From the NCBI GenBank assembly GCA_035545635.1, contig DASZXY010000013.1, positions 184,207 through 248,206 on the forward strand: a stretch of 64,000 bases of DNA, in the 5' to 3' direction. Under the pieces are notes generated by a model that worked only from the letters and a program-made list of their open reading frames with translations, searched no databases and was not told where the DNA came from. The position numbers and the translations under genes are program-made. This document shows, piece by piece, positions 2,961 to 62,332 of the stretch. Each line of letters begins with the position of its first letter. Positions within the stretch are counted from its first letter, which is position 1. This DNA is from Mycobacteriales bacterium (GTDB lineage: Bacteria; Actinomycetota; Actinomycetes; JAFAQI01).

Positions 2961-3008
2961 ACGAAATCGCTCCGCTTCGCTTCACGATTCCGCGGGGGCC
3001 CCGAAAGG
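2961..3008. repeat. Repeated spacer element R1 (ACGAAATCGCTCCGCT...CACGATTCCGCGGGGGCCCCGAAAGG)
   Basis: The 48-bp fadA5-echA spacer is near-identical to R2 (33837-33882) and shares its core with R3, R4 and R5. Confidence 0.7.
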
Positions 3009-3014
3009 ATTGTC

Positions 3015-3803
3015 TTGGCTCACCTTGATGTCGAACAGCAGGGTCATGTCCTCGTCCTGACGATGAACCGGCCGGAGGCGCGCAACGCGCTGTCGCCGGA
3101 CATGCTCGTCGGCCTCGCCGACGCATGGGACCGCATCGACGGCGACCCGGAGATCCGCGTCGCCGTACTCACGGGCGCAGGCGGCACGTTCTGCTCCGGC
3201 GCGGACCTCAAGGCGATGAACGCCTCCGGTACGACGTCGGAAGCCGCGCAGCGGATGAAGGAAGACGCCGGCATCCACTGGAAGGCACTGCTGCGCAGCC
3301 ACCGGCTGACCAAGCCACTGATCGCTGCGGTGGAAGGGTTCGCACTCGCCGGCGGCACCGAGATCTTGCAGGCGACGGACATCCGGGTCGCCGGCGAGAG
3401 TGCAGTCTTCGGGGTCACCGAGGTGACACGCGGCCTGTTCCCGCTCGGCGGCTCGACGGTCCGGTTGCGCCGTCAGATCGGCTTCACGAAGGCGATGGAG
3501 ATGCTGCTCATCGGCGAGCGCGTCTCGGCCGCGGAGGCCGAGCGGATCGGCCTGATCGGCCGCGTCGTACCTGACGGAGAAGCGCTCAAGCACGCTCTGG
3601 AGATCGCAGAGAAGATCGCGGCGAACGCACCGTTGTCGGTGCAGGCGGTGAAGCGCGCAGTGCAGGAGAGCGAGGGCCTCACCGAGGCCGAAGGCCTCGC
3701 GAAGGAGCTGGAGATCGGGGTCGCCATCTTCGGCACCAATGACGCGAAGGAAGGCACGCTCGCGTTCAAGGAGAAGCGCACGCCGAACTTCACGGGCACC
3801 TGA
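3015..3803 (+). CDS. echA19: Enoyl-CoA hydratase (crotonase), EchA19-like
   Basis: Crotonase motifs (LTMNRPEARNALS, GAGGTFCSGADL, AAVEGFALAGGTEIL). TTG start at 3015 preceded by an AAAGGA RBS. Confidence 0.8.
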   Translation: MAHLDVEQQGHVLVLTMNRPEARNALSPDMLVGLADAWDRIDGDPEIRVAVLTGAGGTFCSGADLKAMNASGTTSEAAQRMKEDAGIHWKALLRSHRLTKPLIAAVEGFALAGGTEILQATDIRVAGESAVFGVTEVTRGLFPLGGSTVRLRRQIGFTKAMEMLLIGERVSAAEAERIGLIGRVVPDGEALKHALEIAEKIAANAPLSVQAVKRAVQESEGLTEAEGLAKELEIGVAIFGTNDAKEGTLAFKEKRTPNFTGT

Positions 3804-4489
3804 TGCCCGTCGAAGGTTTCCTGCCCAAGGGCTACAAGGCACCTCGCGTCGATACCGCCGAGACTCGGCTCGCCGATGCGCTGCGACGGCTGATGGACGC
3901 CGCCGTCGTCACGGATGCCGACGATGCGGAGATGCTCGAAGTCGCGGCACGCCTCGACGCGATCTCCTCCCAGCTCGAGGGCGAAGACTGCGTGCGGCTC
4001 GCCCACGGCACCCGCTGGCCGAGCCGCGAGAAGATGATCCAGGGCGATCGCGACCACAACCCGATCGCCGGGCCCGCGAACCCGATGGCCCCGCCGATGC
4101 TCGTCACGGTGGGCGAGGACGACGAGGTCAGCGCCGAGCTGACGATGCGGCCGATCCACGAGGGGCCGCCCGGAGGCGTGCACGGCGGCTGGGTCGCCTC
4201 ACTGCTCGACCAGCTGCTCGGCATCGCTAACATCGCGTCCGGCAACCCGGCGATGACCGGCGAGCTGACGGTCCGCTACCGCCGGCCCACGCCAATCGGC
4301 GTGCCGCTCACGTTGCGAGCGCGCACTACGGCGGTCGACGGTCGACGGGTCGAGACAACGGGCGAGATCGTCGCCGACGGCGAGGTCACCGCGTCAGCAT
4401 TCGGTACGTTCGTGCGCCCGAACCGAGAGCGGTTGGACAAGCACGAGCAGATCGTCAAGGAGCGGATCGCCGCCAAGCAAGACGCGTAA
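3803..4489 (+). CDS. Hotdog-fold acyl-CoA thioesterase (PaaI/YbgC-like)
   Basis: 228 aa with a HGG...D hotdog thioesterase signature (GGVHGGWVASLLD). The start overlaps the echA stop. Confidence 0.65.
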   Translation: MPVEGFLPKGYKAPRVDTAETRLADALRRLMDAAVVTDADDAEMLEVAARLDAISSQLEGEDCVRLAHGTRWPSREKMIQGDRDHNPIAGPANPMAPPMLVTVGEDDEVSAELTMRPIHEGPPGGVHGGWVASLLDQLLGIANIASGNPAMTGELTVRYRRPTPIGVPLTLRARTTAVDGRRVETTGEIVADGEVTASAFGTFVRPNRERLDKHEQIVKERIAAKQDA

Positions 4490-4492
4490 TGA

Positions 4493-4699
4493 TCAGCGGG
4501 AGCTGACGACCACTCGCTCGAGGATCCGGCCGATCTTCTGTTCGACGTCATCCGGCGAGTCCGTCGAGTGCCACACGTCGGCGACCTCGTCGGCCGCGAT
4601 CTGGTACGTGAGAACGACCTCCAGCCACCCCATGAGCATCACCAGCCCGATCAGGCCAGGGACGAAGAGCAAGAACAGCAGCACCCACATCGAGCTCAT
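4493..4699 (-). CDS. Small hypothetical membrane protein
   Basis: 68-aa ORF with one strongly hydrophobic helix. No other support. Confidence 0.3.
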   Translation of the reverse strand: MSSMWVLLFLLFVPGLIGLVMLMGWLEVVLTYQIAADEVADVWHSTDSPDDVEQKIGRILERVVVSSR

Positions 4700-4757
4700 G
4701 GCTGCGGTCGCTCCACTCGTGGCATGACGGAGATGTATCCGGTTTGTCGAGAAACAA

Positions 4758-5516
4758 TCAGCGCGGGACGCGGTCGCCTCGCCAGCACCAGGTGCGCATC
4801 GGGAAGTCGATCTCCTCGGCGTCGCCGTACTGGTCGGTCAACAGCTCGCGCGCCCGGTCGAGGATCGCCGCCCGCTTCTCGGCGGTGGTCGTGATCACGC
4901 GACTGTACGTCGCGACCATGTCGACGGCATCGGACTGCGTCATTCGCCGGGTGAACGGAAACGACCGCCGCTCGATGCCCGTGAACCAGCGGTCACCGTC
5001 GTTCGTCACCTCGCGGCGGGTGCGGTGCTGGTCCTCGACCGCGTCCGCTGGCCGCTCCTCGCCGGGCGCCAAGTCGAGCTCACGCACCCACTCGAGCTCG
5101 CGATCGCGCGACGACCACAGCACGCCGAGGCGACCTCCGTCGCGAAGCACCCGGGCGATCTCCGGCAACGCGCGAGACTCGTCCAGCCAGTGCCAGGCGG
5201 AGGCGACGTAAAGCGCATCCGCGCTCGCGTCGGGAACCGGGATCGACTCCCCCGTGCCGTTGCGTACGTCGATCTCCGGCGACCGGTCGGCCAGGACGGC
5301 GCGCATCTGCGGGTCGGGCTCGACCGCGATCACGATGTCGACCCACTGTGCGAGAGCGCGTGTGAACAGTCCGGTGCCGGCCGCGACGTCGACCGCAACC
5401 TTGCACCCGTCAGGCACCAGCCAGTCGAGCGCCTCCGGCGGTGGGGTCGGGCGCAGCCGGTCGTAGTCCTCAGCGATCGCGCCGAAGGACAGCGCACGCT
5501 CTTCCTTGCTCGTCAC
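4758..5516 (-). CDS. Class I SAM-dependent methyltransferase
   Basis: SAM-binding motif I VAVDVAAGTGLFTRALA, 252 aa. Confidence 0.8.
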   Translation of the reverse strand: MTSKEERALSFGAIAEDYDRLRPTPPPEALDWLVPDGCKVAVDVAAGTGLFTRALAQWVDIVIAVEPDPQMRAVLADRSPEIDVRNGTGESIPVPDASADALYVASAWHWLDESRALPEIARVLRDGGRLGVLWSSRDRELEWVRELDLAPGEERPADAVEDQHRTRREVTNDGDRWFTGIERRSFPFTRRMTQSDAVDMVATYSRVITTTAEKRAAILDRARELLTDQYGDAEEIDFPMRTWCWRGDRVPR

Positions 5517-5539
5517 ACCTCAACCGTAGAGTCGGTCGG

Positions 5540-6136
5540 GTGCCTGTTTGCCGGAAGCCGCACGGCGCGACTCCGCCGAACCTTTCCACCGAGGCCCCTT
5601 CGACCGACGGCCTGGTCCTCGACGACGGCGACGCTTCCAGCCAGTGGCTGTCCGGCGTACGCGTGCTCGAGCTCGACCTCGATCGGCCACAGCTCGTCGA
5701 CCTGCGCCTCGATGAGTGCGACCTCTCTGCCATCACCGCCAACGGGTTCGGGATGCGCAGGGTCGCGATGCGGGGCACGAGGTTGCGGGGCGTGGCCCTT
5801 TCAAAAGGCCAGTACGACGACGGGCTGCTCGAGGACTGCACAACCGACGAGTTCTCCATGCGGTTCAGCGGCCTGCGCAACGTCGTGTTCCGCAACTGCG
5901 ACCTGACCGGCGCCGACTTCTACCAGGCCGGCTTCGACCACGTGACGTTCGAGGGCTGCCGGCTGCGCACGGCGCGCTTCCACGCTGTGTCGATCAAGTG
6001 CCTGCGGATCAGCAACTGTGACCTGAGCGGTGTCGTCGGCGCGCTCGACCTCAAGGGAGCGGTCGTCGACATCGCCGACTTGCCGAGCCTCGCGCCCTCG
6101 CTCGCCGGCGAGGTCGGCATCGAGCTGACGGATTGA
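5540..6136 (+). CDS. Pentapeptide-repeat protein
   Basis: Tandem pentapeptide repeats (NCDLTGADFYQAGFDHVTFEGCRLRTARFH...). A GTG at 5540 avoids overlapping the methyltransferase; the start is uncertain. Confidence 0.5.
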   Translation: MPVCRKPHGATPPNLSTEAPSTDGLVLDDGDASSQWLSGVRVLELDLDRPQLVDLRLDECDLSAITANGFGMRRVAMRGTRLRGVALSKGQYDDGLLEDCTTDEFSMRFSGLRNVVFRNCDLTGADFYQAGFDHVTFEGCRLRTARFHAVSIKCLRISNCDLSGVVGALDLKGAVVDIADLPSLAPSLAGEVGIELTD

Positions 6137-6406
6137 TCAGGCCGGGGGCGTGAGTCCCTCGATCAGCTTGCCGGGATCGATGTTGAGCGCCTCAGCCAGC
6201 TTGAGCAGGTTGTGCAACGACAGATTTCGGCGCCCACGTTCGACCTGACCGACGAAGGTCCAGTGCAAGCCGGCAAGGTCAGCAAGCGCCTCCTGGCTCA
6301 AGTCGAGCTCATGGCGGCGGGCACGCACCCGGTCGCCAAAGGTCGCAAGTGCGTCAGATGCGGGATCGGGCATGGTTGCCCAACCAAATAAGTCCCGACC
6401 AACCAC
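6137..6406 (-). CDS. XRE-family helix-turn-helix transcriptional regulator
   Basis: HTH_XRE signature LSQEALADLAGLHWTFVGQVERGRRNLSLHNLLKLAEAL. Confidence 0.75.
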   Translation of the reverse strand: MVGRDLFGWATMPDPASDALATFGDRVRARRHELDLSQEALADLAGLHWTFVGQVERGRRNLSLHNLLKLAEALNIDPGKLIEGLTPPA

Positions 6407-6531
6407 GACCAGAGCGTTTGGGTCTAGTGACTTTGAGTCCTAGTGCATCTGCACTGACGGGCTTTCAGAAACCGGGGGCGAGATATGGCAGGCTCTGATC
6501 CGCTCACCGGACGCGAAAGGGCTAGCAGGCC

Positions 6532-7512
6532 ATGCCGATCTCGATCATGCGCTTCAACTACGTGCTGCCCGGGCGCGATCCCGACCGTCTGTCCGAGATG
6601 TACGCGGCATCGATCGAGATGGCCGCGGTCGCCGACCGGGCCGGCTTCATGGCGATCTCGATGGAGGAGCACCACGGCGTCGACGACGGATGGAGCCCGG
6701 CGCCCCTGACGACCGCAGGCTTGATCCTCGGTCACACCAAGTACATCCGCGTGATGATCCAGGCGCTGCTCGTCCCCCTCAACGACCCGCTGCGGGTCGC
6801 GGAACAGGTCGCCGTACTCGACCTTGCCAGCGGCGGCAGGATCAACGTGGTCGCGGGGCTCGGCTACCGGCCGGAGGAGTACGAAGCCGCAGGTGTCGAC
6901 TGGAAGTCTCGCGGCAGGATCATGGACGAGTCGCTCGACGCGATCGTCGCGGCCTGGTCCGGCGAGGAGTTCGAGTACCGCGGCCGCAAGGTGCGCGTGA
7001 CTCCGACCCCCAAGAACCCGGCGAGCGCGATCCTGTTCGTCGGCGGCAGCGGCCGGCCGGCGGCCCGGCGTGCCGCGAGGCTCGGGCTTCCGCTCCTGCC
7101 TGCGGCACACCTGCCGGAGCTGCAGGCGTACTACCAGGAGGAGTGCGCCAACCACAACACGACTGGCTTCGTCATCATGCCGCCGGAGGAGACGAAGCTG
7201 ACGCTGCTGTCCAACGACCCGGACCGGGCGTGGGACGAGCTGGGCGAGCACCTGCTCCACGAGGCGAAGCAGTACCAGAGCTGGCAGACCCCCGACGTCC
7301 ATTCGGCGGTGTCGTCACACGCCTTTACGGTCGAGGAGCTCCGAGCCGAGGGCATCTACCGGATCATGAGCCCGGACGAGGCCGTCGAGTGGTGCCGGGC
7401 AAACGGCGAGTTCGCCACGATGGTGCTGCACCCGCTCTGCGGCGGCGTGCCGGTCGATCGCGGCTGGGAGACCCTGCGCCTCTACATCGACAAGGTGCTG
7501 CCAGCCCTCTAA
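6532..7512 (+). CDS. LLM-class flavin/F420-dependent oxidoreductase
   Basis: Luciferase-like monooxygenase fold, 326 aa. Confidence 0.8.
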   Translation: MPISIMRFNYVLPGRDPDRLSEMYAASIEMAAVADRAGFMAISMEEHHGVDDGWSPAPLTTAGLILGHTKYIRVMIQALLVPLNDPLRVAEQVAVLDLASGGRINVVAGLGYRPEEYEAAGVDWKSRGRIMDESLDAIVAAWSGEEFEYRGRKVRVTPTPKNPASAILFVGGSGRPAARRAARLGLPLLPAAHLPELQAYYQEECANHNTTGFVIMPPEETKLTLLSNDPDRAWDELGEHLLHEAKQYQSWQTPDVHSAVSSHAFTVEELRAEGIYRIMSPDEAVEWCRANGEFATMVLHPLCGGVPVDRGWETLRLYIDKVLPAL

Positions 7513-7562
7513 ACGCAGCATTGCCTGCACTGTGAGGGTGTGTCGCGGGTAGAACAGAGCGC

Positions 7563-8399: not shown

Positions 8400-8404
8400 C
8401 TCAG

Positions 8405-10063: not shown

Positions 10064-10075
10064 CATTGCTGGGAG

Positions 10076-14095: not shown

Positions 14096-14110
14096 TCTGA
14101 CGGGTCGTCA
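14096..14110. promoter_or_regulatory. Palindrome TCTGACGGGTCGTCA (site B)
   Basis: TGACG-GGT-CGTCA, 10 bp upstream of the echA start at 14121. Confidence 0.5.
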
Positions 14111-14120
14111 TACTTTCCCG

Positions 14121-20814: not shown

Positions 20815-22098
20815 TCAGCCCTTCCAGCGGCCTTCGGGAGTCAAGTCGTAGAACCGGATCGCGTTGCCACGCACGATCTTTTCGACAATGTCGTCGTCGA
20901 GGTGCTTCATCTGCTGCTCGGCGACTGCGCGGGTGTTCGGCCAGGTCGAGTCGGAGTGCGGGTAGTCGCTCTCGTAAGCGATGTTGTTGACGCCGACAGC
21001 CTCGACATTCATCAAGCCGTGCGGGTCGTCGAAGAAGCAACCGAGGACGTGCTCGTAGTAGAGCTCGCTCGGCGGACGCTTGACCGTGTCGGCGACGCCA
21101 CCCCAACCGCGGTTCTCCTCCCACACCACGTCCGCGCGGTGCAGCACATAGGGGATCCAGCCGATCGATCCCTCGGAGAACGCGATCTTCAGCGTCGGGA
21201 AGCGCTCCAGCGCGCCGCACATCAGCCAGTCGACGAGCGAGTAGCAGGAGTTGGCGAACGTCAGCGTCGAGCCGACCGCGGCGGGTGCGTCCTTCGACGT
21301 TGACGGCATCTTCGACGACGAGCCGATGTGCATGTTGATGACGGTGCCGGTCTCCGCGCATGCCTGGAAGAACGGGTCCCAGTAACGGTTCTTGTCGTGC
21401 ACGCTCGGCAGGTCGAGGAACGGCGGGATCTCGGAGAAGCACGTCGCGCGCACGCCACGCGCCGCGTTGCGTCGCACCTCTTGCGCCGCGAGTTCCGCGT
21501 CCCACAACGGCACGATGATCAGTGGGATGAGCCGGCCGTCGGCGTCGCCGCACCACTCTTCGACCTGGAAGTCGTTGTAGGCCTTCACGCACTCGAGCGC
21601 GACGTCCTTGTCCTTGGCCTCGAGGAAGGTCTGGCCACAGAACCGCGGGAACGTGGGGAAGCACATCTGGGACTCGGTCCAGTTGGCGTCCATGTCCTCG
21701 AGGCGCTCCTTTACGGAGTAGGCCCCGGTGCGCATCTGGTCGTAGCCCACGAGCCGGAGGTCGACCTCGTCACGGTCGTAACCGACGGAGGCGTCGAGCC
21801 GCATCAGCGGGCGCTTGAGCGACTCGTAGGTCCACCACGCGACGTCAGGACCGCTGCCCGGCTCGCCCATCGAAACCGTGAGCTTGCCGCCGACGAACGT
21901 CACGTCACCCTTGGGCGCGAAGACGACCTTCGGGCCCTTTTCCTTCATGGCGGCCGGGAGCCGGTCCTGCCACAGGTTCGGGGGCTCGACCACGTGGTCA
22001 TCGACCGACACGATCTTCGGGAACTCGTCCATGACGGCAACCCTACCTGTTTCTGACGGGTCGTCAGATTTAGACTTCGGCGATGAAGCGAACGGCAT
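20815..22098 (-). CDS. Amidohydrolase-2 family metal-dependent hydrolase
   Basis: ACMSD-like TIM-barrel hydrolase. An alternative start is the ATG at 22032 (MDEFPKIV). Confidence 0.8.
   Translation of the reverse strand: MPFASSPKSKSDDPSETGRVAVMDEFPKIVSVDDHVVEPPNLWQDRLPAAMKEKGPKVVFAPKGDVTFVGGKLTVSMGEPGSGPDVAWWTYESLKRPLMRLDASVGYDRDEVDLRLVGYDQMRTGAYSVKERLEDMDANWTESQMCFPTFPRFCGQTFLEAKDKDVALECVKAYNDFQVEEWCGDADGRLIPLIIVPLWDAELAAQEVRRNAARGVRATCFSEIPPFLDLPSVHDKNRYWDPFFQACAETGTVINMHIGSSSKMPSTSKDAPAAVGSTLTFANSCYSLVDWLMCGALERFPTLKIAFSEGSIGWIPYVLHRADVVWEENRGWGGVADTVKRPPSELYYEHVLGCFFDDPHGLMNVEAVGVNNIAYESDYPHSDSTWPNTRAVAEQQMKHLDDDIVEKIVRGNAIRFYDLTPEGRWKG
22052..22069. promoter_or_regulatory. Palindrome TCTGACGGGTCGTCAGAT (site C)
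   Basis: Perfect 18-bp inverted repeat in the divergent spacer between the amidohydrolase and the secreted hydrolase. Confidence 0.55.
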
Positions 22099-27302: not shown

Positions 27303-27854
27303 TCAGGCGGGGCGGGACTCGACCAGGCGGACCAGGGGGATCTTGCGTTCGGTCTTCGTCTGGTAGTCCGCGTAGTGGGGCCGGTCTTCGAGCATCGCGG
27401 CCCAGGTCGCGTCGTACTCCTCGCCCTCGAGGATCTCCGGCACCGACCAGTAGGTCCCACCTTGCACGCGGACGAAGACCTCCGGGTTCGCGGCGCGGTC
27501 GGAGAGGTTCAGGAACCACGCGGGATGCTTCTCGGCCCCTGCGAATGACCCGACCACGACGCGAACGCCGTTCGGATCCCGCCAGAACGGCAGGGCGACC
27601 TTGTGCTCGCGCCCGCTGCGCCGTCCGATCGTGCGGAGCAGCACGTGATGCATGTTGACCCAGACCCAGACGCTGTCCTCGTCGGAGCTCTCCATCATCT
27701 CGACGTGCTGAGCGCTGATCGCAACGATCTCGTCACGCGTAGGCGTTGTGAAGTCCGTAGACCGTTGTGAGGTCACGCCAGGCACCGTACTCTGCAACCT
27801 GACAGAACCTGACGAGGCGTCAGATTTCGCCACGACGTCGCTCGCTGCGCTCAC
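27303..27854 (-). CDS. Ddn-like deazaflavin (F420H2)-dependent nitroreductase family protein
   Basis: C-terminal 130 aa resemble Ddn/PA-824 nitroreductase split-barrel proteins (RRSGREHKVALPFWRD...KHPAWFLNL). The start is uncertain, either 27854 or an internal Met. Confidence 0.55.
   Translation of the reverse strand: MSAASDVVAKSDASSGSVRLQSTVPGVTSQRSTDFTTPTRDEIVAISAQHVEMMESSDEDSVWVWVNMHHVLLRTIGRRSGREHKVALPFWRDPNGVRVVVGSFAGAEKHPAWFLNLSDRAANPEVFVRVQGGTYWSVPEILEGEEYDATWAAMLEDRPHYADYQTKTERKIPLVRLVESRPA
27808..27825. promoter_or_regulatory. Palindrome CCTGACGAGGCGTCAGAT (site D)
   Basis: TGACG-AGG-CGTCA preceded by the direct repeat AACCTGAC x2. Lies upstream of NMO paralog 2. Confidence 0.5.
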
Positions 27855-27875
27855 AACGCCGCGGGCCCCGATGCC
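27841..27875. repeat. Spacer element R4 (CGCTCACAACGCCGCGGGCCCCGATG)
   Basis: Shares the CACAAC-CCGCGGG-CCCCGA(A)ATG core with R3. Confidence 0.55.
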
Positions 27876-27913: not shown

Positions 27914-29044
27914 GTGCGCACGCCGGTCTGCGAGAAGTTCGGGATCGAGTTCCCGATCTTCGCGTTCTCCCACTGCCGCGACGTGGTTGCCGCCGTCAGC
28001 CGGGCCGGGGGCCTCGGGGTTCTCGGCGCGCTCGCCTACACCTCCGAAGAGCTCGAGATCGAGCTGAAGTGGATCGAGGACCACTGCGACGGCAAGCCGT
28101 ACGGCGTGGACCTCGTGATGCCGGCCAACTACATCGGCAAGGGCGACAAGCAGCCCTCCGAGGACGAGCTGCGCGCGATGATCCCGCAGGAGTACTGGGA
28201 CTTCCTCGACAGCATCATGGACGAGTACGGCGTCCCACCACTGCCGGAGGACGTCGACCTCGGCCGCGCCAAGACGGCGGGCCTCGGTGTCGACGACCAG
28301 GCAGGACGCTCGGTCGACGTGGCGCTGAGCTACCCCAACGTCCGGCTGCTCGTGAACGCACTCGGTCCGCCGCCGGAGGACGTGGTCAAGAAGGCGCACG
28401 ACCACGGCGTACTGGTCGGCGCGCTGATCGGCAGCCAGCACCACGCGCAGAAGCAGATCGACATCGGCGTCGACATCATCGTCGCGCAGGGAACCGAGGC
28501 CGGCGGCCATACCGGCGAGATCGCCACGATGGTGCTCGTGCCGGAGATCGTCGACGCCGTCGGCGACCAGGTTCCGGTCCTCGCTGCAGGCGGTATCGGT
28601 TCCGGACGTCAGATGGCGGCGGCGCTCGCGCTCGGCGCGCAGGGCGTGTGGACCGGCTCGATCTGGCTGACCGTGGCCGAGGCCGACACCCAGCCCGAGC
28701 CGCTCGCGAACCTGCTCGCCGCCGACTCGCGCGGCACGGTCCGGTCCAAGACGATGACCGGCAAGCCCGCCCGCCAGCTTCGTACGGCGTGGACCGACGC
28801 GTGGGAGCGCGAGGGCGCGCCCAAGACGCTGCCGATGCCGCTGCAGGGAATCCTCTGGAACGCAATGGCGCGCCGCGTGAGCCGTTCCAAGACCAAGGAG
28901 CTCTCTGGCTTTCCGGTCGGTCAGATCGTCGGCCGCATGAACAAGGTGCGCCCGACCCAGGAGGTCATGCTCGATCTGGTTCAGGAGTGGATCGCCACGA
29001 CCGAGCGGCTGTCCGCCATGCTCGAAGACTCGGCGAGCGGCTGA
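27914..29044 (+). CDS. Nitronate monooxygenase family protein, paralog 2
   Basis: Same family as 17866..18999, with a near-identical N-terminus (GIEFPIFAFSHCRDVVAAVSRAGGLGVLGA). GTG start. Confidence 0.9.
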   Translation: MRTPVCEKFGIEFPIFAFSHCRDVVAAVSRAGGLGVLGALAYTSEELEIELKWIEDHCDGKPYGVDLVMPANYIGKGDKQPSEDELRAMIPQEYWDFLDSIMDEYGVPPLPEDVDLGRAKTAGLGVDDQAGRSVDVALSYPNVRLLVNALGPPPEDVVKKAHDHGVLVGALIGSQHHAQKQIDIGVDIIVAQGTEAGGHTGEIATMVLVPEIVDAVGDQVPVLAAGGIGSGRQMAAALALGAQGVWTGSIWLTVAEADTQPEPLANLLAADSRGTVRSKTMTGKPARQLRTAWTDAWEREGAPKTLPMPLQGILWNAMARRVSRSKTKELSGFPVGQIVGRMNKVRPTQEVMLDLVQEWIATTERLSAMLEDSASG

Positions 29045-33072: not shown

Positions 33073-33826
33073 GCGCGCGGCCAGCCGGCCGGACCCCGTG
33101 CTCGAGGTCGTCAACGCCTCGGTGCGCTTCGGTGGGATCAACGCCGTCTCCGATGTCTCGCTGTCTGTGCTGCCGGGCCAGGTCACCGGGCTGATCGGTC
33201 CCAACGGGGCAGGCAAGACCACAACCTTCAACGTGATCACCGGACTTCAGGAACCGACCCACGGCAAGGTCTTCATCGATGGCAAGGAGGTGAGCAAGCT
33301 CGCGCCGTTCAAGCGTGCTCGGCGCGGACTCGCTCGCACGTTCCAGCGCCTCGAGGTCTTCGGCTCGCTCACGGTCTACGAGAACGTCCTCGCCGCGGCC
33401 GAGTTCCACAAGTCGTGGTCGGACGACGCGACGCCGCCGGTGAAGGTGGCGGCCGAGGTCATCGACAGGGTCGGCCTGCGCCGCGTGGCCAACGCCCGGG
33501 TCGACGCGCTGCCCACCGGCATCTCGCGGCTCGTCGAGCTCGGCCGCGCGCTTGCCACCCGGCCGCGCGTGCTGCTGCTCGACGAGGTCGGTTCCGGGCT
33601 CAACGCCGAAGAGACCGACGCTCTCGGCGACCTGATGCTCGCCCTGGTGAGTGACGGTACGGCGATCTTGCTCGTTGAGCATGACGTGGAGCTCGTCATG
33701 CGGGTGTGTACGGAGATCTACGTCCTCGACTTCGGACGGATCATCGCGAACGGCACGCCGGCGCAGATCCAGAAGGACCCGGTCGTGAAAGCGGCCTACC
33801 TAGGCGCGGACGACATCGCCTCATGA
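33059..33826 (+). CDS. ABC transporter ATP-binding protein (LivG-like)
   Basis: Walker A GPNGAGKTT, signature and Walker B motifs. Confidence 0.9.
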   Translation: MPAAERAASRPDPVLEVVNASVRFGGINAVSDVSLSVLPGQVTGLIGPNGAGKTTTFNVITGLQEPTHGKVFIDGKEVSKLAPFKRARRGLARTFQRLEVFGSLTVYENVLAAAEFHKSWSDDATPPVKVAAEVIDRVGLRRVANARVDALPTGISRLVELGRALATRPRVLLLDEVGSGLNAEETDALGDLMLALVSDGTAILLVEHDVELVMRVCTEIYVLDFGRIIANGTPAQIQKDPVVKAAYLGADDIAS

Positions 33827-33836
33827 ACCACTCGCC

Positions 33837-33882
33837 ACGAAATCCCTCCGCTACCCTCCACGATTCCGCGGGGGCCGTGGAA
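33837..33882. repeat. Spacer element R2 (ACGAAATCCCTCCGCT...CACGATTCCGCGGGGGCCGTGGAATG)
   Basis: Near-identical to R1. It ends with the ATG start codon of the livF-like gene. Confidence 0.7.
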
Positions 33883-34592
33883 TGAGCACGCACGCCATAG
33901 AGCTCATCGACCTGCACGCCGGCTATGGCCGGATCGAGGTGCTGCACGGCGTCAACCTCGCCGTACCGAGCGGCACGGTCTTCGCGCTGCTCGGACCTAA
34001 CGGCGGCGGCAAGTCGACGACGCTTCAGGTCGTCTCCGGAGCGATTCGTCCCACCTCCGGCTGCGTCCATATCGCGGGCTCGCACGTGAACGGCGCCAGC
34101 CCCGACGCCCTGGCACGGGCCGGCGTGACCCGGATCCCGGAGGGACGCGGGATTTTCCCGAACCTCACCGTCGACGACAATCTCCGGATCTGGACGTACG
34201 CCGCGGGTGAGTCGCTGAAGTCGGTGCAGAAAACGACGTTCAAGCGCTTCCCGCGCCTCGAGGAACGCCGTAACCAGCGCGCCGGGACGATGAGCGGCGG
34301 CGAGCAGCAGATGCTCGCGATGTCACGGGCGCTCGTTGCGCGACCCGCCGTACTGCTGCTCGACGAGATCTCCATGGGTTTGGCGCCGATAATCGTCAGT
34401 GAGCTCTACTCACTGGTGCGCCAACTCGCTGAGGAGGGGATCACGATCCTGCTCGTGGAGCAGTTCGCGACCACGGCGCTACGCGTCGCGGACTTCGCTG
34501 CAGTAATGACGCAGGGCCGCATCATCGCGGTCGGCGAACCGCAGGACATCGAGTCGCAGGTGTCCGAGGCCTACCTCGGTGGTGCCGCATGA
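33882..34592 (+). CDS. ABC transporter ATP-binding protein (LivF-like)
   Basis: Walker A GPNGGGKST, LSGGEQQ signature. Confidence 0.9.
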   Translation: MSTHAIELIDLHAGYGRIEVLHGVNLAVPSGTVFALLGPNGGGKSTTLQVVSGAIRPTSGCVHIAGSHVNGASPDALARAGVTRIPEGRGIFPNLTVDDNLRIWTYAAGESLKSVQKTTFKRFPRLEERRNQRAGTMSGGEQQMLAMSRALVARPAVLLLDEISMGLAPIIVSELYSLVRQLAEEGITILLVEQFATTALRVADFAAVMTQGRIIAVGEPQDIESQVSEAYLGGAA

Positions 34593-41101: not shown

Positions 41102-41550
41102 GAGCTCGCCTCCTGCGGCTTCCAGCGGTAGACGAGGTAGTCCTTCTCGTCGTCGGAGTAGAGCGTCTCGATGACGAGGTCCACTTTCGTGCCGACGCTG
41201 AGGTCGGCCACTCCGAAGCCGTCGGCGATCTGACCGAGCACGACCATCTGCTCGGCCTCGAGCTCGACGGCAGCGAGCGCGAACGGCACGTATGGGTCGC
41301 TGCGCGGAATGTATGGCGGCGGCGGTTGGTACTGCGCGTCGGTGAAGGACCAGATGGTTCCGGTGCGCGACAGCTCGATGTCGGCAAAGGCGTCGCCGCT
41401 GCAGTCCGGGTTGCGGCAGAAGTTCGACGCCTTCGGGAAGAAGACAGTGCCGCACGACGTACAGCGATTGCCGACCAGGGCCGGGTTGTCATCGATCGTG
41501 AACCAGCCCTCGACGGCGGGTACCCGCTCCCTGGCTGCGGTTTCTGACAC
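41098..41550 (-). CDS. DUF35 OB-fold / Zn-ribbon protein (thiolase partner)
   Basis: 150 aa. Cys4 ribbon CTSCGTVFFPKASNFCRNPDC plus an OB-fold region. Classic pairing with an SCP-x thiolase. Confidence 0.75.
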   Translation of the reverse strand: MSETAARERVPAVEGWFTIDDNPALVGNRCTSCGTVFFPKASNFCRNPDCSGDAFADIELSRTGTIWSFTDAQYQPPPPYIPRSDPYVPFALAAVELEAEQMVVLGQIADGFGVADLSVGTKVDLVIETLYSDDEKDYLVYRWKPQEASS

Positions 41551-41560
41551 CCCGTCAGAT
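41543..41560. promoter_or_regulatory. Palindrome TCTGACACCCCGTCAGAT (site E)
   Basis: Lies between the DUF35/Ltp operon start and the LLM gene. It is followed by a second inverted repeat, TTAGCGC-N8-GCGCTAA, at 41559-41583. Confidence 0.5.
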
Positions 41561-51914: not shown

Positions 51915-51924
51915 CGAGCCGTCG

Positions 51925-56634: not shown

Positions 56635-56676
56635 TCCTCTGTGCCATTCCGGGTGGCTGTGGCCTGGCCCGACGAT

Positions 56677-56695
56677 ATCTGAAAAGGTGTCAGAT
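56677..56695. promoter_or_regulatory. Palindrome ATCTGA-N7-TCAGAT (site G, degenerate)
   Basis: Has the outer arms of the TCTGACG..CGTCAGAT motif. Lies in the divergent spacer between the ligase and the LLM gene. Confidence 0.4.
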
Positions 56696-56702
56696 AATCC
56701 TC

Positions 56703-56746
56703 ACGAGGTTGCCCGCTCCGCTCACAACCCCGCGGGGGCCCCGAAA
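56703..56746. repeat. Spacer element R3 (ACGAGGTTGCCCGCTCCGCTCACAACCCCGCGGGGGCCCCGAAATG)
   Basis: Core identical to R1 and R2. Its terminal ATG is out of frame with the LLM gene. Confidence 0.65.
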
Positions 56747-56780
56747 TGCCAAGAAACACAACGCTTTGGGAGCCTGCGTC

Positions 56781-57671
56781 GTGGCAGTCACGTTGAGCAT
56801 CGGCGTGCCGAACTTCGGTGGCTGGTCGGGCGGCGACTGGCGTGGCCTCGTCGACGTCGCGCGGATGACGGAGGACGCGGGGATTGACCGCATCGTCGTC
56901 GTCGACCACACGGTGATGGGCCGTAACACCGACGCCTACGCCTGGGGCCGGTTCCCGGTGCCACCCGAGGCGCCCTGGCTCGAGCCGCTCGCTGTGCTGA
57001 GCGCGATGGCGGCCGTCACGACGACGCTGCGGCTGTCCACCGGCATCCTCATCGCGCCGCTGCGCCCGGCGTCCGTGCTGGCGAAGCAGGTCGCGACGCT
57101 CGACGTCTTGTCGAACGGCCGGGTCGACCTCGGCGTCGGGGTCGGGTGGCAGAAGGAGGAGTACGACGCGCAGGGCCTGGACTTCTCCCAACGCGGGACG
57201 CTGCTGGACGACACGATTGCGGCCTGTCGCGCACTGTGGTCCGACCTGCCAGCCAGCTTCGAGTCGACGTCCGTCAGCTTCGACGACACGTTCTGCTCGC
57301 CGCAGCCAATCCAGTCCCGGCTACCGGTGTGGTTCGGCGGGTCGCTGACCGAACGAATGATCGCTCGCATCGTCGATCTCGGGGACGGCTGGATCCCGAT
57401 CATGGGAGCGACGCTCGACGACGTACGGGACGGCGCCACCCGCCTGGCGGCAGCCACGAGCCGGCGGATCGAAGTACAGATGCGAGCCACCACGGTGATG
57501 GGCGATGACGGAAAGGCGGATCCGGTCGGCACAATGTCTGGCGTGCCCCAGCTCCCCGATGCCGGCGTCACGGACGTGACAGTTAACCTCGCGGCATTCG
57601 CTCCCACGATGGCGGATGCGCCAGCCGCGCTGCGCGCGCTCGGCAAAGCTTTTGGGGAGGTGACCGCGTGA
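56781..57671 (+). CDS. LLM-class F420-dependent oxidoreductase
   Basis: GTG at 56781 gives MAVTLSIGVPNFGGW, a typical LLM N-terminus, and is preceded by a GGGAG RBS. The track ORF extension from 56628 overlaps the divergent gene. Confidence 0.8.
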   Translation: MAVTLSIGVPNFGGWSGGDWRGLVDVARMTEDAGIDRIVVVDHTVMGRNTDAYAWGRFPVPPEAPWLEPLAVLSAMAAVTTTLRLSTGILIAPLRPASVLAKQVATLDVLSNGRVDLGVGVGWQKEEYDAQGLDFSQRGTLLDDTIAACRALWSDLPASFESTSVSFDDTFCSPQPIQSRLPVWFGGSLTERMIARIVDLGDGWIPIMGATLDDVRDGATRLAAATSRRIEVQMRATTVMGDDGKADPVGTMSGVPQLPDAGVTDVTVNLAAFAPTMADAPAALRALGKAFGEVTA

Positions 57672-58111: not shown

Positions 58112-59133
58112 TGAAGGCGTACCGGCTTCTCGACTGGCAGCGGGCGGACTTCGACGAGGTGCCGATTCCCGAGCCCGGACCGGGAGAGGTGCGAGTCCGC
58201 ATCGGCGGCGTCGGGCTCTGCCATTCCGACGTCATCTTCCTTGAGGCACCGGCCGGCCTGCTCCCTTACGACCTGCCGTTCACCCTCGGCCACGAGATCG
58301 CCGGATGGGTGGACGCGGTCGGTGCCGGCGTCGACGCCGTTGCTCACGATGAGGCAGTCGCGGTCGCCTGCATGGCGCCGTGCGGCGAGTGCCGTTGGTG
58401 TCGTCGGGGCCAGGACAACTATTGCGTCGACACCTGGCACGGCCGGGGCTTCGGTGTCGACGGCGGGCTCGCGGAGTACATCGTCGTCGGCGCAAGTCAG
58501 CTCGTGCCGCTCGGCGACCTGGACCCGAAGGTCGTCGCACCGTTGACGGATGCGGGCGCGACGTCGTACCACGCAGTGAAGAAGGCCCTACCGAAGCTGT
58601 ACGACGACTCAACCGCGGTCGTGATCGGCGTCGGCGGGCTCGGCGCGTACGGCGTGCAGTGGCTGCGCATGCTGACGAAGGCGCGGATCATCGCGGTCGA
58701 GGCGAAGCCGGAACGCATCAAGGCGGCCGCCGAACTCGGAGCGCACGAGGTGATCGAGGCGGGCGACGGCCTTTCGAGGCGGCTCGCCGAGGCGATCGGC
58801 GAGGGCGGTGCCGACGCGATCCTCGATTTCGTCGGCAGCGATGCCACGATCCGCGCCTCGATGCGCAACGTCGCGAAGGCGGGAGCGATCGGTCTCGTCG
58901 GCCAGGGCTTCGGCAAAGGCGAGGTCCGCTACGGAGCGTGGGCGCATGACGCCGACCTGTTCAACCCGCAGGGCTCGACGATCGCCGAGCTCGGCGAGGT
59001 GATCGCACTCGCGAAGTCGGGCGAGGTGGTCGTCGAGGTTGAGCAGTTCGGGTTCGACGAAGTCGTCGAGGCCTACCAGCGGCTAACGGACGGGACCCTC
59101 AACGGCCGAGCGGTCGTCCTCCCCAACGGCTAG
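58108..59133 (+). CDS. Zn-dependent NAD(P) alcohol dehydrogenase (MDR family)
   Basis: GLCHSD zinc site and GVGGLG Rossmann motif. ATGA overlap. Confidence 0.85.
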   Translation: MMKAYRLLDWQRADFDEVPIPEPGPGEVRVRIGGVGLCHSDVIFLEAPAGLLPYDLPFTLGHEIAGWVDAVGAGVDAVAHDEAVAVACMAPCGECRWCRRGQDNYCVDTWHGRGFGVDGGLAEYIVVGASQLVPLGDLDPKVVAPLTDAGATSYHAVKKALPKLYDDSTAVVIGVGGLGAYGVQWLRMLTKARIIAVEAKPERIKAAAELGAHEVIEAGDGLSRRLAEAIGEGGADAILDFVGSDATIRASMRNVAKAGAIGLVGQGFGKGEVRYGAWAHDADLFNPQGSTIAELGEVIALAKSGEVVVEVEQFGFDEVVEAYQRLTDGTLNGRAVVLPNG

Positions 59134-59954
59134 GGCTTCTGTAGGAACTTCTGGAGCTTGGCGATCCGCCAGGGCCGGCGGCCGCCCGCGACGCGTAGCC
59201 CGCGACGGACTGCGCCGACCTGGCCGAGGCGCTGATAGAAGAAGAGCAGGAGCGTCTCCGGTGGCGACGTGAGAACGACATCGGCGGGCTCACCTACATC
59301 AGCCGGTCGACTGTCGACCTTGCCGTTGTCGAAGGCGAGCATCCAGTTCGCGGCACCCGGCACCCGGAACTGCAGATCGAGGGTGCCTGTCGCGGTCGGC
59401 TCGGCATAGGCGGACGTCAGCTGCATGATCGCGTTGATGACGAGGAGCGCGTCACGCGAGTCGATTCGCCACGGTCGACCCGCCCCGCGAGCGAGGTCGT
59501 GGCCGTGCACCATGAACTCGCCGATGAAGTTGGCCATCCCTCCCGCAGCGTCGATCGTCGTGTTGCCGTGGAACGGGAAGCGCTGATGCAGGTCGAGTTG
59601 CTCCGGCGCGAACGCGACCCGCACTCTCTTCATCTGCGACACCAGCTCCGGGATCAGGTCCCCCATCTGGACACCATCGAGCTCGCGCAGCTCTCGATCG
59701 TTGATCAGGTCGACCTCGCGTGGCGTCGCGCCGAGGCCGTCGGTGCTCATGATGTCGCGGTTCGTATAACGACGAGCGACGGTCAGGATGTGGGCGACGA
59801 CGTCCCGCGATGTCCAGGTCGTTCCCGCGCCGACGACGTCAGGCCCGACCGACCTCACCAGCGAGATGAACCGCTCCTGCACCGCATCGATGCGCCGCCA
59901 GAGCTCTTCTCCCTCTGTCGCGATGAACCGCTGGTAAGCCTGCTGCACAGCCAT
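59130..59954 (-). CDS. DinB/maleylpyruvate-isomerase-N-domain family protein (mycothiol-dependent-like)
   Basis: N-terminal DinB-like four-helix region (WTSRDVVAHIL). I take the start at the MAVQQAYQRF Met. Confidence 0.55.
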   Translation of the reverse strand: MAVQQAYQRFIATEGEELWRRIDAVQERFISLVRSVGPDVVGAGTTWTSRDVVAHILTVARRYTNRDIMSTDGLGATPREVDLINDRELRELDGVQMGDLIPELVSQMKRVRVAFAPEQLDLHQRFPFHGNTTIDAAGGMANFIGEFMVHGHDLARGAGRPWRIDSRDALLVINAIMQLTSAYAEPTATGTLDLQFRVPGAANWMLAFDNGKVDSRPADVGEPADVVLTSPPETLLLFFYQRLGQVGAVRRGLRVAGGRRPWRIAKLQKFLQKP

Positions 59955-59973
59955 GTCGTCCTCCCGTGTGGTG

Positions 59974-60003
59974 CAGTTTGCAGTACTGCATATTGCAGTA
60001 CTA
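59974..60003. promoter_or_regulatory. Candidate PadR operator: 12-bp perfect palindrome TGCAGTACTGCA plus 9-bp direct repeat TGCAGTACT x2
   Basis: In the 60-bp divergent spacer between the DinB-like gene and padR. Confidence 0.5.
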
Positions 60004-60023
60004 TCACCACATGACCGACGGCA

Positions 60024-60637
60024 TGTCAACCAACTCCTACGCGGTGCTCGGAATGCTCGCCCTACGGCCGTGGACGCCGTACGAGCTCACCCAGCAATTT
60101 CTTCGCAGCCTTTCCTGGTGCTGGCCCGTCTCGGAGCGCCAGCTCTACACCGAACCCGAAAAGCTGGTCGGTCTGGGCCTTGCGAGGGTCCAGTCCGCCG
60201 ACAACGGCGCTCGCGCCCGGCGGCAGTACTCGATTACTCCCGCCGGGCGAAAGGCCCTCAAAGAATGGCTCGGCACCCCCACCACTGCGCCTCGAGTCTT
60301 CAACGAGCCGCTGCTACGAGTGCTCTACGCGGATCAGGGCGACCAGGCTGATCTGCTGCAGGCACTCGTCGGCCTACGCGAGGAGATGCTCGCGCGGTTC
60401 GAGGTCGGCCGAGAGCGGTCCCTCGAGTACCTGGAGGAACGCGGCCCGTTCCCGGACCGGGCACACCTCATCGCGATCTTCGCCGACCTGGGCCAGCGCA
60501 TCACCACCGTCATCGACGAGTGGGCGTCGGATTCGATCCGCGAAGTGAAGACGTGGCCGAGCACGAAGAGCCTGGGCATGACTTCCGCAACGCGGCGGAC
60601 CCTCAAACGGGTGGTGGACGCCGCCCATCCCGCCTGA
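60024..60637 (+). CDS. PadR-family transcriptional regulator
   Basis: PadR winged-helix motif AVLGMLALRPWTPYEL. An ATG at 60012 is also possible. Confidence 0.8.
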
Positions 60638-60654
60638 TGGCAGAGACGCCCGTT

Positions 60655-60767
60655 CGTATGTGACATAGGTGTCGTGAATTACGACCCGAATGTCACATAC
60701 GTGTTGGATATTGCGACACCTATGTCACATGCGGCACCGGTGGCACAACACCTATGTCACATGCGAT
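60655..60767. repeat. Cluster of four TATGT(G/C)ACATA palindromes, including a 17-bp perfect inverted repeat (ATGTGACATAGGTGTCG / CGACACCTATGTCACAT)
   Basis: Lower-GC 150-bp spacer between convergent padR and aldehyde dehydrogenase genes. Confidence 0.75.
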
Positions 60768-60790
60768 ACGGCGCGAGAAGCCGGTAGCGC

Positions 60791-62239
60791 TCAGCCGGTG
60801 TAGCCCATGGGCATGAGGATCGACTTGAGCTCGCAGAAGGCGGCGAGGCCTTCGGGACCGTCCTCGCGACCGATACCGGAGCACTTGTAGCCACCGAACG
60901 GCGAGCCCATGTCGAAGGCGTACCAGTTGATGCCGTAGGTGCCGGTGCGGACCTTCGTCGCGATCTCGTAGCCGTGGTCGACATCCTGCGTCCAGACCGA
61001 GCCGGCAAGACCGAAGTCGCTGTCGTTCGCAATCGCGACGGCCTCTTCCTCGGTGTCGTAGGGCAGCAGGGAGAGGACCGGGCCGAAGATCTCCTCCTGC
61101 GCGATCGTCATCTTGTTGTCGACGTCGGCGAAGACGGTCGGGGCGACGTACCAGCCGGTGTCGAGACCGGCCGGCCGGGTCCCGTCGAGCACGAGCCGCG
61201 CTCCCTCGGCCTTGCCCTTCTCGATGTAGCCCTCGACGCGGTCGCGCTGCCGCTCGGCGACCAGCGGGCCGAGCTGCGTCGCCGGGTCCGACGGATCACC
61301 CACGACGAACATCTTCGCGGCCTCGGTGATCGCCTCGGTGATCTCGTCGTAGCGGTTCCGCGGCGCCAGGATCCGAGTCTGCGCGACGCACGCCTGCCCG
61401 GAGTTCATCAGGCCGGAGAACGCGATCATGAACGCGCTCGATGCGAGGTCGACGTCGTCGAGCAGGATCGCGGCCGACTTGCCGCCGAGCTCGAGCGAGA
61501 CGCGCTTGAGCCGCTCGGTCGCGAGCGAGCCGACCTTGCGACCAGCCGCAGTCGAGCCGGTGAACGACACCTTGTCGACGCCGGGGTGCGTGACGAGGTA
61601 CTCGCTCACCTCGCGGTCCGCCGGTACGACGGAGATGACGCCCTCGGGCAGCCCCGCCTCGACCAGCAGCCCGCCGAGCATCAGCGAGTCGATCGGCGTC
61701 TCTGGGGCCGGCTTCAGCACCACGGTGCAACCGGCGAGCAGCGCCGGGATGACCTTGTTGACCGCGATGAACAGCGGCACGTTCCACGGGATGATCGCGG
61801 CGACGACGCCAACCGGCTCGCGACGTACCTTGCTGATGCCGAACGCGCCGCTGCGCTGCTCCTCCCACGGGAAGCTGTCAGCCAGGCCCGCGAACACGTC
61901 GAGCGCGCCCTTCGCCGGCGTGTACATCATCATCTCGACGGTCGACGGCGGGGCGCCCATCTCCGAGGAGATGACCGTCTTGTAGTCCTCGATCCGCTCG
62001 GCAAGCAGGTCGGCGAACTTCGCCAGCACCTTCGCCCGCTCACTCGGCGGCGTGGTCGGCCACGGTCCGTGGTCGAAAGCCTGCCGGGCGGCAGCAACCG
62101 CCGCGTCGATGTCCGCCTCGACGCCCTCGGGCACCGTGCCGACCACCTCGAGCGTCGCCGGAGAGCGCACCTCGAAGGTCTGGCTGGTCGACGGCGCGAC
62201 CCACTTTCCGCCGATCAGAAGCTGGTCGTATGAGGTCAT
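60791..62239 (-). CDS. Aldehyde dehydrogenase (NAD(P)+)
   Basis: ALDH motifs (ELGGKSAAIL, catalytic Cys in NSGQACVA, EEIFGPV). Confidence 0.9.
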   Translation of the reverse strand: MTSYDQLLIGGKWVAPSTSQTFEVRSPATLEVVGTVPEGVEADIDAAVAAARQAFDHGPWPTTPPSERAKVLAKFADLLAERIEDYKTVISSEMGAPPSTVEMMMYTPAKGALDVFAGLADSFPWEEQRSGAFGISKVRREPVGVVAAIIPWNVPLFIAVNKVIPALLAGCTVVLKPAPETPIDSLMLGGLLVEAGLPEGVISVVPADREVSEYLVTHPGVDKVSFTGSTAAGRKVGSLATERLKRVSLELGGKSAAILLDDVDLASSAFMIAFSGLMNSGQACVAQTRILAPRNRYDEITEAITEAAKMFVVGDPSDPATQLGPLVAERQRDRVEGYIEKGKAEGARLVLDGTRPAGLDTGWYVAPTVFADVDNKMTIAQEEIFGPVLSLLPYDTEEEAVAIANDSDFGLAGSVWTQDVDHGYEIATKVRTGTYGINWYAFDMGSPFGGYKCSGIGREDGPEGLAAFCELKSILMPMGYTG

Positions 62240-62249
62240 GTCGCCATTA

Positions 62250-62267
62250 TGTGACGACCCGTCAGAT
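62250..62267. promoter_or_regulatory. Palindrome TGTGACGACCCGTCAGAT (site F)
   Basis: TGACG-ACC-CGTCA, in the divergent spacer between the aldehyde dehydrogenase and the lipoprotein gene. Confidence 0.5.
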
Positions 62268-62288
62268 CTGGTCGAGGCAGGGTCGAAT

Positions 62289-62332
62289 CACGATCTTGAA
62301 CACCTTGATTCCGCAGGTTCCGCGCCGAATGG
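62289..62332. repeat. Degenerate spacer element R5 (CACGATCTTGAACACCTTGATTCCGCAGGTTCCGCGCCGAATG)
   Basis: Retains the CACGAT, GATTCCGC and CCGAATG blocks of the R element. Its ATG is in frame with the lipoprotein. Confidence 0.4.

Follow-up and report, generated by a model that had tools for sequence, protein, structure and literature searches.

Why does one sequence of about 50 nucleotides (nt) recur in front of unrelated genes in a 64,000-nt stretch of contig DASZXY010000013.1 from a Mycobacteriales bacterium, the whole of which is referred to here as the window? The original prediction, made from the sequence alone, described five copies of this element, termed R, in short spacers ending at or near start codons, and proposed that it might be a composite operator-promoter/leader module, a miniature mobile element or a conserved structured 5' leader. 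We consider it probable (about 0.72) that R belongs to a family of hairpin-bearing interspersed repeats of about 50 nt carried by Actinomycetes, with a design like that of MIRUs (interspersed repetitive units of mycobacteria). Judged against the one MIRU unit compared, R is unrelated in sequence but has the same stop/start-coupled design, and its central feature, overlooked in the original prediction, is a mini open reading frame (mini-ORF) whose two ends overlap the neighbouring genes, at the stop codon of the one upstream and at the start codon of the one downstream.

Four of the five copies, R1 to R4, are members of a single family. A degenerate pattern drawn from them (CACGA N7-8 CGCT N5-6 CAC N A NN CCGCGGG) matches the window at these four places alone, all on the + strand, with 0 matches expected from 100 shuffles. 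A covariance model built from 73 distinct family copies, run on the window with filters off, returned four matches of 43-72 bits, the next-best hit scoring 14.7 bits (E 0.26), and nhmmer recovered the same four copies. R1 and R2 have an exact 18-mer in common and are about 83-90% identical, in agreement with the ~85% first estimated; R3 contains the same 18-mer with three mismatches, and R4 is, by hand alignment, a close relative of R3. Pfam assigns the genes downstream of R1 to R4 to enoyl-CoA hydratase, ABC ATPase, LLM oxidoreductase and NMO, respectively, and the gene names given earlier are thus borne out. The true extents proved slightly wider than those first drawn, and the start of R4 had been placed about 10-18 nt too late. 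The fifth copy did not survive: R5 is absent from the 32 covariance-model matches in the window (filters off, E<=10) and from the nhmmer matches listed, down to about E=11, its fold contains no hairpin, and it aligns only loosely to R1-R4. R5 is more likely a chance resemblance of the 3' half, and at best a decayed relic. The gene 3' of it (window 62329-62400) encodes a lipoprotein signal peptide, MDGMKPIATTLSLAAVVALAGC, with lipobox LAGC; ATGs at 62329 and 62338 are both in frame, and Pfam gives no match.

Beyond the window, the family was sampled by a strict-pattern scan of 185,579 species genomes. The search for further copies of the core proposed at the outset was fruitful: the pattern matched 85 loci, and about 70 of these, in other Actinomycetes, are the same element including its flanks. 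Thirteen matches were set aside as chance, being without flanking conservation and unconfirmed by the covariance model. Run on the 85 loci, the model gave 88 matches, about ten of them outside the strict pattern and some in tandem arrays. Carriers include Micromonospora, Phytohabitans, Asanoa, Geodermatophilus, Blastococcus, Cellulomonas, Actinophytocola and one unclassified actinomycete, together with many soil metagenome-assembled genomes (MAGs) of Frankiales, Sporichthyaceae and 'Mycobacteriales'; Phytohabitans aurantiacus is among the cultured carriers. The unit is 51-53 nt long, and its consensus with flanks reads [A/G]TGA-n-CACCC CACGA NNNNN CTCGCTGCGCTCA NNNNN CCGCGGGG(G/A)CCCCG-n-ATGA, or, over 73 copies, GAnCACCC CACGAAGTCGCTCGCTGCGCTCACGACTCCGCGGG GGCCCCGn, with CACGA and CCGCGG as its conserved boxes. 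Downstream genes are unrelated, among them those for enoyl-CoA hydratases, ABC ATPases, LLM oxidoreductases, NMO, acyl-CoA dehydrogenases, short-chain dehydrogenases/reductases (SDR) and many others. Copies also occur in tandem (designating loci from other genomes by L numbers, L021 5 x 54 nt, L065 4 x 56, L034 2 x 53 and L044 2 x 56), adjacent copies are always direct and head-to-tail, and copy number can differ at an orthologous site (one in L046, two in L076). A search of viral (phage) contigs and PLSDB plasmids yielded no copy of R. Rfam 15 gave no match at gathering score in the window and none at E<=1 in four R-bearing loci, and no description of the family was found in the searchable literature, nor relevant reports of REP/RAYT systems in Actinobacteria or of non-mycobacterial MIRU-like repeats; the family is apparently uncatalogued and undescribed.

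Several of these loci deserve separate mention. At L012:1654-1706(+) of Micromonospora and L035:5930-5982(+) of Phytohabitans, R occupies the same junction and the downstream sequence is near-identical; some insertions are therefore old and have been kept across genera. Partial R fragments adjoin full copies at L016:7089-7139(-), L066:5023-5073(-) and L051:6705-6755(-); with a 5' flank ...CTCGCTGCGCTCACGCTT.GCACCC and 3' repeats of GGGGACCCCG, they look like truncated tandem units. Canonical copies in L005 and L010 come from a MAG labelled 'Spirochaetaceae bacterium CAN_BIN15' (JAJAYQ01), have high-GC, actinomycete-like flanks, and likely stem from mis-binned contigs.

The most telling regularity of the family concerns reading frame. 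Among the 52 copies with [A/G]TGA just upstream and NTGA just downstream, the spacing is 2 mod 3 in 51, with values of 53, 56, 59, 62, 65 or 68 nt and no stop codon inside. Such copies thus contain a mini-ORF of 17-22 codons, whose start codon shares bases with the stop of the preceding gene ([A/G]TGA) and whose stop codon shares bases with the start of the following one (ATGA); analysis of GC phase at codon positions identifies the flanking NTGA as the true stop of the upstream gene and the ATGA as the true start of the downstream one. The repeat is read in all three frames, giving different peptides, for example MSTPRRRSLRSRRRGDPA, MKHPTKLLRFAPQFRGGPA and MISPHEIAPLRSTIPRGPR; the constraint lies on frame and not on product. 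Units within arrays keep the rule, being 53 or 56 nt with ATGA and 0 mod 3 when fused in frame. A Shine-Dalgarno (SD)-like tetramer precedes the start of the mini-ORF in 28 of 57 cases (49%), compared with 17% of random positions, an excess consistent with the mini-ORF having taken over the ribosome-binding site that formerly served the downstream gene. Flanking coding strands were called by a GC1/GC2/GC3 phase rule rather than by open frames or GC3, since in high-GC DNA the antisense strand too has open frames; by this rule both flanks are coding on the strand of the element in 64 of 92 copies, and the downstream gene is co-oriented with R in 78 of the 82 cases called. The majority of copies stand precisely where one gene stops and the next starts.

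Two loci show the repeat read in frame as coding sequence. In Micromonospora sp. CPCC 206061 (L021:1127-1395(-)), five tandem 54-nt units without ATGA are in frame with the downstream ORF, starting from an ATG that overlaps the upstream stop; unless translation begins at an internal GTG, the protein would gain about 90 residues of repeated PPHEIAPLRSTIPRGPQQ. At L166:17312-17354(-), an extra copy with a loop 9 nt shorter lies at a ChsH2|thiolase junction and is read through, giving the ChsH2-like protein a C-terminal extension of 15 aa (163 vs 148 aa); in L169 and L170 the two genes simply overlap by ATGA at this junction.

Within the window, R2 is the canonical coupled form. Its mini-ORF begins with an ATG that shares bases with the livG stop (ATGA, 33823-33826) and closes with a TGA that shares bases with the livF start (ATGA, 33882-33885), and this copy, as originally proposed, ends exactly at the livF ATG. 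That rule does not extend to the others without qualification. R1 is an intra-operon insertion with its own SD: placed between the thiolase gene, with stop TAA at 2951-2953, and the enoyl-CoA hydratase gene, with TTG at 3015, and ending 10 nt before that TTG, it has hairpin arms at 2957-2997 and no mini-ORF, and an SD-like AAAGGA (3003-3008) is followed by 6 nt and then the TTG. R3 and R4 are 5'-untranslated region (UTR) insertions just downstream of a repressor-type operator. R4 lies directly 3' of CCTGACGAGGCGTCAGA and 42 nt ahead of the NMO GTG at 27914, and R3 directly 3' of the weak TCTGAAAAGGTGTCAGA and 36 nt ahead of GTG 56781, the ATG that follows it (56746-56748) being out of frame with the LLM gene. 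GTG 56781 is probably the true LLM start, because the annotated protein 100% identical to its product (P0241 = HVT64955.1) is 296 aa long and homologue lengths agree. From the out-of-frame ATG runs a 16-codon upstream ORF (window 56746-56796) whose TGA overlaps an in-frame TTG (TTGA, 56793-56796), and this ORF may be a relic of the ATGA end of the element. We make no claim of translational coupling there, as homologue lengths favour GTG 56781. Positions of all these features are collected in the table.

Table. Copies of R and associated features in the 64,000-nt window.
Feature	Position	Strand	Remarks
R1	2952..3004	+	Full copy; covariance model 72.5 bits, E 8.4e-15
R2	33828..33880	+	livG-livF junction; covariance model 43.1 bits
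R2 mini-ORF	33823..33885	+	20 codons + stop, MNHSPRNPSATLHDSAGAVE*
R3	56694..56744	+	AMP-ligase/LLM divergent intergenic region; covariance model 63.8 bits
R4	27823..27871	+	NMO 5'-UTR; 2-nt deletion in G run; covariance model 55.5 bits
R5 (as first proposed)	62289..62332	+	Unsupported as family member
Operator at R4	27808..27824		CCTGACGAGGCGTCAGA; context, outside R; kept without R in L166-L170
Operator at R3	56678..56694		Weak, TCTGAAAAGGTGTCAGA; context, outside R; kept in L175 (with R) and L176 (without R)
Operator-like palindromes	14096-14112, 22052-22068, 27808-27824, 41543-41559, 56678-56694, 62250-62266		22052 copy perfect

The window derives from an uncultured 'Mycobacteriales' soil MAG, whose relatives include GCA_035545775.1, GCA_035548055.1, GCA_035550055.1 and GCA_035550655.1. 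Comparison with syntenic loci of relatives shows that copies are gained and lost between close relatives, at four of the four window sites, and the suggestion of a miniature interspersed element is upheld. At the R1 site, R is absent from four of four relatives (hydratase 83-96% identical), in which the spacer is 1-14 nt. At the R2 site, where the LivF relatives compared are 93-94% identical (metagenome relatives at <=70% identity were left out of the empty-site comparison as too distant), L166, L167 and L168 carry R and two of the five, L169 and L170, do not, reading gccTAG|ATGAGC; from ATG to ATG the filled livG|livF junctions measure 59, 65 or 68 nt, each of which is 2 mod 3. The R3 site is filled in L175 (56.4 bits) and empty in L176, one of two relatives, whose LLM promoter has retained the operator, 21 nt ahead of the start codon. 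The R4 site is empty in all five relatives (L166-L170), with the operator and promoter region conserved. At R3, AGA and AGAAAC were considered as target-site duplications and are too weak to claim.

The element contains a 13-bp imperfect hairpin with two conserved A.C mismatches, seen in single-sequence folds of R1 and R3 as CCCC-A-CG-A-NNNNN / NNNNN-C-CG-C-GGGG. In the 73-sequence alignment, covariation could be assessed at the three pairs left free on both sides by the search pattern: pair 14-39 is AU in 37 copies, CG in 17 and GC in 6; pair 15-38 is GC in 34, AU in 25 and UA in 3; and pair 17-36 is CG in 54 and UA in 13. Paired cells amount to 95.5%, as against 41-50% when the 3' partners are slid, and double-change cells number 64, as against 21 +/- 5 in shuffles, none of 500 of which reaches 64. 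The hairpin is maintained by compensatory substitutions. Orthologous sites differ in the same manner (R3 G-C vs L175 C-G at pair 14-39; R2 T-A vs L166/L167 G-C at pair 16-37), which is suggestive of selection on the hairpin after insertion, with gene conversion as the alternative. The two DNA strands are far from equal: mean hairpin energy is -25.7 kcal/mol antisense and -14.3 kcal/mol sense, the antisense form being the stronger in 87 of 87 copies, since the two conserved A.C mismatches there become G.U (G.T), which makes it about 11 kcal/mol more stable. With the antisense alignment as input, RNAalifold finds this hairpin together with its three covarying pairs. At the variable pairs, G.U and A.C are equally common (9 vs 9) and uninformative as to which strand folds. 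The idea of a conserved structured 5' leader stands as regards structure; as a gene-specific leader or riboswitch it finds no support, the downstream genes being unrelated.

Taken together, these observations lead us to favour a MIRU-like interspersed repeat, and a plausible course of events may be sketched. R would be a selfish insertion, tolerated because it leaves translation coupled. The mini-ORF would now draw on the old ribosome-binding site within the upstream gene; the translating ribosome would melt the hairpin, terminate and restart at ATGA, perhaps aided by the 3' arm of the hairpin, an SD-like G run 6-8 nt before the start codon. More speculatively, the hairpin with its CACGA and CCGCGG boxes would be the probable recognition structure for a mobilising activity, acting on the antisense DNA strand, and sense insertions might survive in that the mRNA presents only a weakened, A.C-interrupted hairpin.

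Several points weigh against this account. Translation of the mini-ORF and its coupling are what we infer from sequence, and R1, R3 and R4 are without the mini-ORF form. The search pattern fixes CACGA, CGCT and CCGCGGG, and the invariance of these positions, the two A.C mismatches among them, partly reflects how the sample was drawn; family copies are moreover related by descent, and the counts given above are not of independent events. On the sense (mRNA) strand, RNAalifold did not recover the hairpin, and single-sequence folds in 65-nt windows were no better than shuffles (z -2.0 to +1.2). Finally, no mobilising enzyme, target-site duplication or exact insertion boundary is defined, filled and empty sites being 4-17% diverged at the protein level, and gain by recombination or gene conversion instead of transposition could also account for the distribution.

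How the element moves is addressed by the best surviving alternative, in which R is a hairpin of single-stranded DNA, like those of repetitive extragenic palindromic (REP) sequences or derived from the insertion sequences (IS) of the IS200/IS605 family, moved by a Y1/RAYT-type transposase and inserted next to a short target ending in GA (ATGA, GTGA, TCAGA). Such a reading, which we regard as unlikely, would specify the movement of the repeat proposed above. It draws on the imperfect hairpin, in which two mismatches and the boxes at the foot are conserved, on the much greater stability of that hairpin on one DNA strand, on orientation-specific insertion with a left flank that nearly always ends in NTGA or CAGA, and on the lack of a clear target duplication when window sites are set against relatives. 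Yet R has one hairpin in place of left and right ends, its units stand in direct tandem and not once as inverted REP doublets, NTGA and the core are separated by anything from 3 to 9 nt where that family has a fixed cleavage distance, and there is neither a GTAG-type REP head nor any copy on phage contigs or plasmids.

We see a slimmer chance that R is a host-functional structured RNA recruited to operons (a hairpin that processes or stabilizes mRNA, a translational throttle or a protein-binding site) and not a selfish element. Compensatory hairpin changes, including those at orthologous sites after divergence, the strongly sense orientation and the insertions kept across genera (L012, L035) would all be expected of it. 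The unrelated downstream genes would not, nor would close relatives that have done without R at all four window sites with no visible replacement, tandem arrays with a copy number that varies between orthologous sites, or a sense hairpin that is weak, missed by RNAalifold and without an Rfam match. This reading and the MIRU-like repeat are compatible, in that a selfish repeat can be co-opted.

The original prediction gave prominence to the neighbourhood of R and a TGACG palindrome. An operator-like palindrome, TCTGACG-N3-CGTCAGA, does recur in the window at six good or fair sites, two of which adjoin R. It stands upstream of several catabolic genes, is kept at orthologous promoters (L166-L170, L175, L176), is found also in L024, L046 and L076, and is probably bound by a single regulator that governs a regulon. 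Its proximity to R at R3 and R4 is real, but the gap of 10-40 bp described at first is not: about 7 nt separate the palindromes from the CACGA core, and the palindromes touch or overlap the stretch matched by the R model. Elsewhere R adjoins the operator at an acyl-CoA dehydrogenase gene (one copy in L046:1839-1891(-), two in L076:73-181(+)) and at an SDR gene (L024:3710-3760(+)), so that R starts about 7 nt after the operator TCAGA at four or more genes (NMO, LLM, acyl-CoA dehydrogenase and SDR). The recurrent junction hints at a target preference, its left flank ending in GA as NTGA does, or at tolerance of insertion at the 5' end of a transcript.

That R and the palindrome form one composite operator-promoter/leader module is nonetheless very improbable. 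In its favour is the offset of about 7 nt at five promoters (R3, R4, L024 and L046/L076). However, the operator is kept without R at orthologous NMO (L166-L170) and LLM (L176) promoters, which shows the two to be separable, 64 of 92 family members lie inside operons without an operator, and four of the six good operators in the window are without R. Nor did the promoter role once suggested find support. The R consensus has zero TA dinucleotides and hence no TANNNT -10 element, so that R is unlikely to be a promoter, and a sigma-70 promoter scan at R3 and R4 and of the consensus found none. Upstream of the NMO operator, TTGTGA-17-TACTCT might serve as the promoter, on an inference from sequence, and scores below the threshold of the tool. 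A search for intrinsic terminators found no terminator-like site at R3 or R4, and the consensus continues into CCCCG-ATG, not a T run. As for GC-rich spacers being alike by chance, the 5' half on its own (ACGAAATCNCTCCGCT, 3 mismatches) is indeed no commoner than in shuffles, R5 being such a case, but four full-pattern matches where 0 are expected, scores of 43-72 bits and about 90 further copies elsewhere leave that explanation with next to no probability.

If R is a MIRU-like repeat, several consequences follow. A stop/start-coupled design shared by a sequence-unrelated family that is widespread in soil Actinomycetes would point to a general way of inserting DNA into operons without breaking translation, and the covarying hairpin and conserved boxes offer a concrete target in the search for the mobilising factor. 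In practical terms, the repeats create unannotated mini-ORFs and shift apparent gene starts and ends by C- and N-terminal extensions, can mislead annotation and operon prediction in high-GC MAGs, and could serve as strain-typing loci. A bolder proposal, which we hold tentatively and with the odds against it, is that R represents a second, independent lineage of 'start-codon-seeking' elements, whose covarying hairpin, strong on the antisense DNA strand alone, would be what a dedicated mobilisation system grips as it targets stop/start junctions and the earliest transcribed bases beyond promoters. Were this so, and given that there are cultured carriers (Micromonospora sp. CPCC 206061 and Geodermatophilus siccatus DSM 45419), R could disclose the way in which MIRU-type elements move, which has been an open question since 1997, and could show that bacteria tolerate or exploit portable translational couplers that tune operon stoichiometry.

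Among known systems, the MIRUs are the closest in design. They are used worldwide for tuberculosis typing, and their origin, mobility and effect on expression are unexplained. As summarized in PMC12548453, which cites Supply 1997, MIRUs are mobile, insert at start codons and carry an ORF coupled with -4 spacing. Like R, MIRUs are short (about 50-nt) spacer units inside operons, oriented with the genes (PMC12548453). Both contain a small ORF, its start overlapping the stop codon of the gene before it and its stop the start codon of the gene after it (ATGA, -4), both occur singly or in tandem with variable copy number, and both are found in Actinomycetes. Set against a definition of MIRUs as repeats of about 46-100 nt in operon spacers in the orientation of the genes, R has a length of 51-53 nt, an operon location in 64 of 92 copies and co-orientation in 78 of 82. 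In architecture, then, R agrees with MIRUs throughout, whereas in sequence and in being confined to the genus Mycobacterium it does not. The MIRU sequence compared was MIRU292 of M. avium paratuberculosis alone (PMC7977185, Table 1). Against it, nhmmer gave 1.1 bits over 11 nt, with TCGCTGCGCTC as the sole shared stretch, a score matched by 3 of 200 shuffles, and the best rotated global alignment was equalled by 54 of 300 shuffles and is not significant. R differs further in its covarying 13-bp hairpin; MIRUs are described as having no dyad symmetry. Its hosts also differ, the strict pattern having found R in Micromonosporales, Geodermatophilales, Frankiales, Cellulomonas and uncultured 'Mycobacteriales' MAGs and no true copy in the genus Mycobacterium, where the single match (L067, M. 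sphagni) is unconfirmed by the model and divergent copies would escape the pattern. R is found, moreover, in 5'-UTRs beside an operator.

Other systems resemble R in part. REPs and bacterial interspersed mosaic elements (BIMEs) are likewise imperfect palindromes, of about 35-40 nt, with many extragenic copies, a conserved stem foot and a possible effect on mRNA. REPs of Enterobacteria and Pseudomonas, however, lie mostly after genes, often as inverted doublets, and obey no frame rule, whereas R lies before start codons as direct repeats that follow a mod-3 rule and has no inverted pairs. Its imperfect palindrome covaries and has CACGA and CCGCGG as conserved boxes, with no GTAG. From IS200/IS605 elements R is set apart by its single hairpin without left and right ends and by its variable (3-9 nt) NTGA-to-core distance. 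The Rickettsia palindromic elements, of about 100-150 nt, insert inside ORFs, and R resembles them where it is carried in frame in coding sequence (the 15-aa extension in L166 and the array of 5 x 18 aa in L021), but it lies mainly at gene junctions. A final parallel comes from engineered bicistronic designs and the delivery of ribosomes by upstream ORFs, in which a short leader ORF likewise ends on the start codon of its target (PMC12548453), and initiation depends on translation of the leader and is insensitive to local structure (PMC12548453). Unlike these constructs, R is a natural, repeated and mobile cassette.

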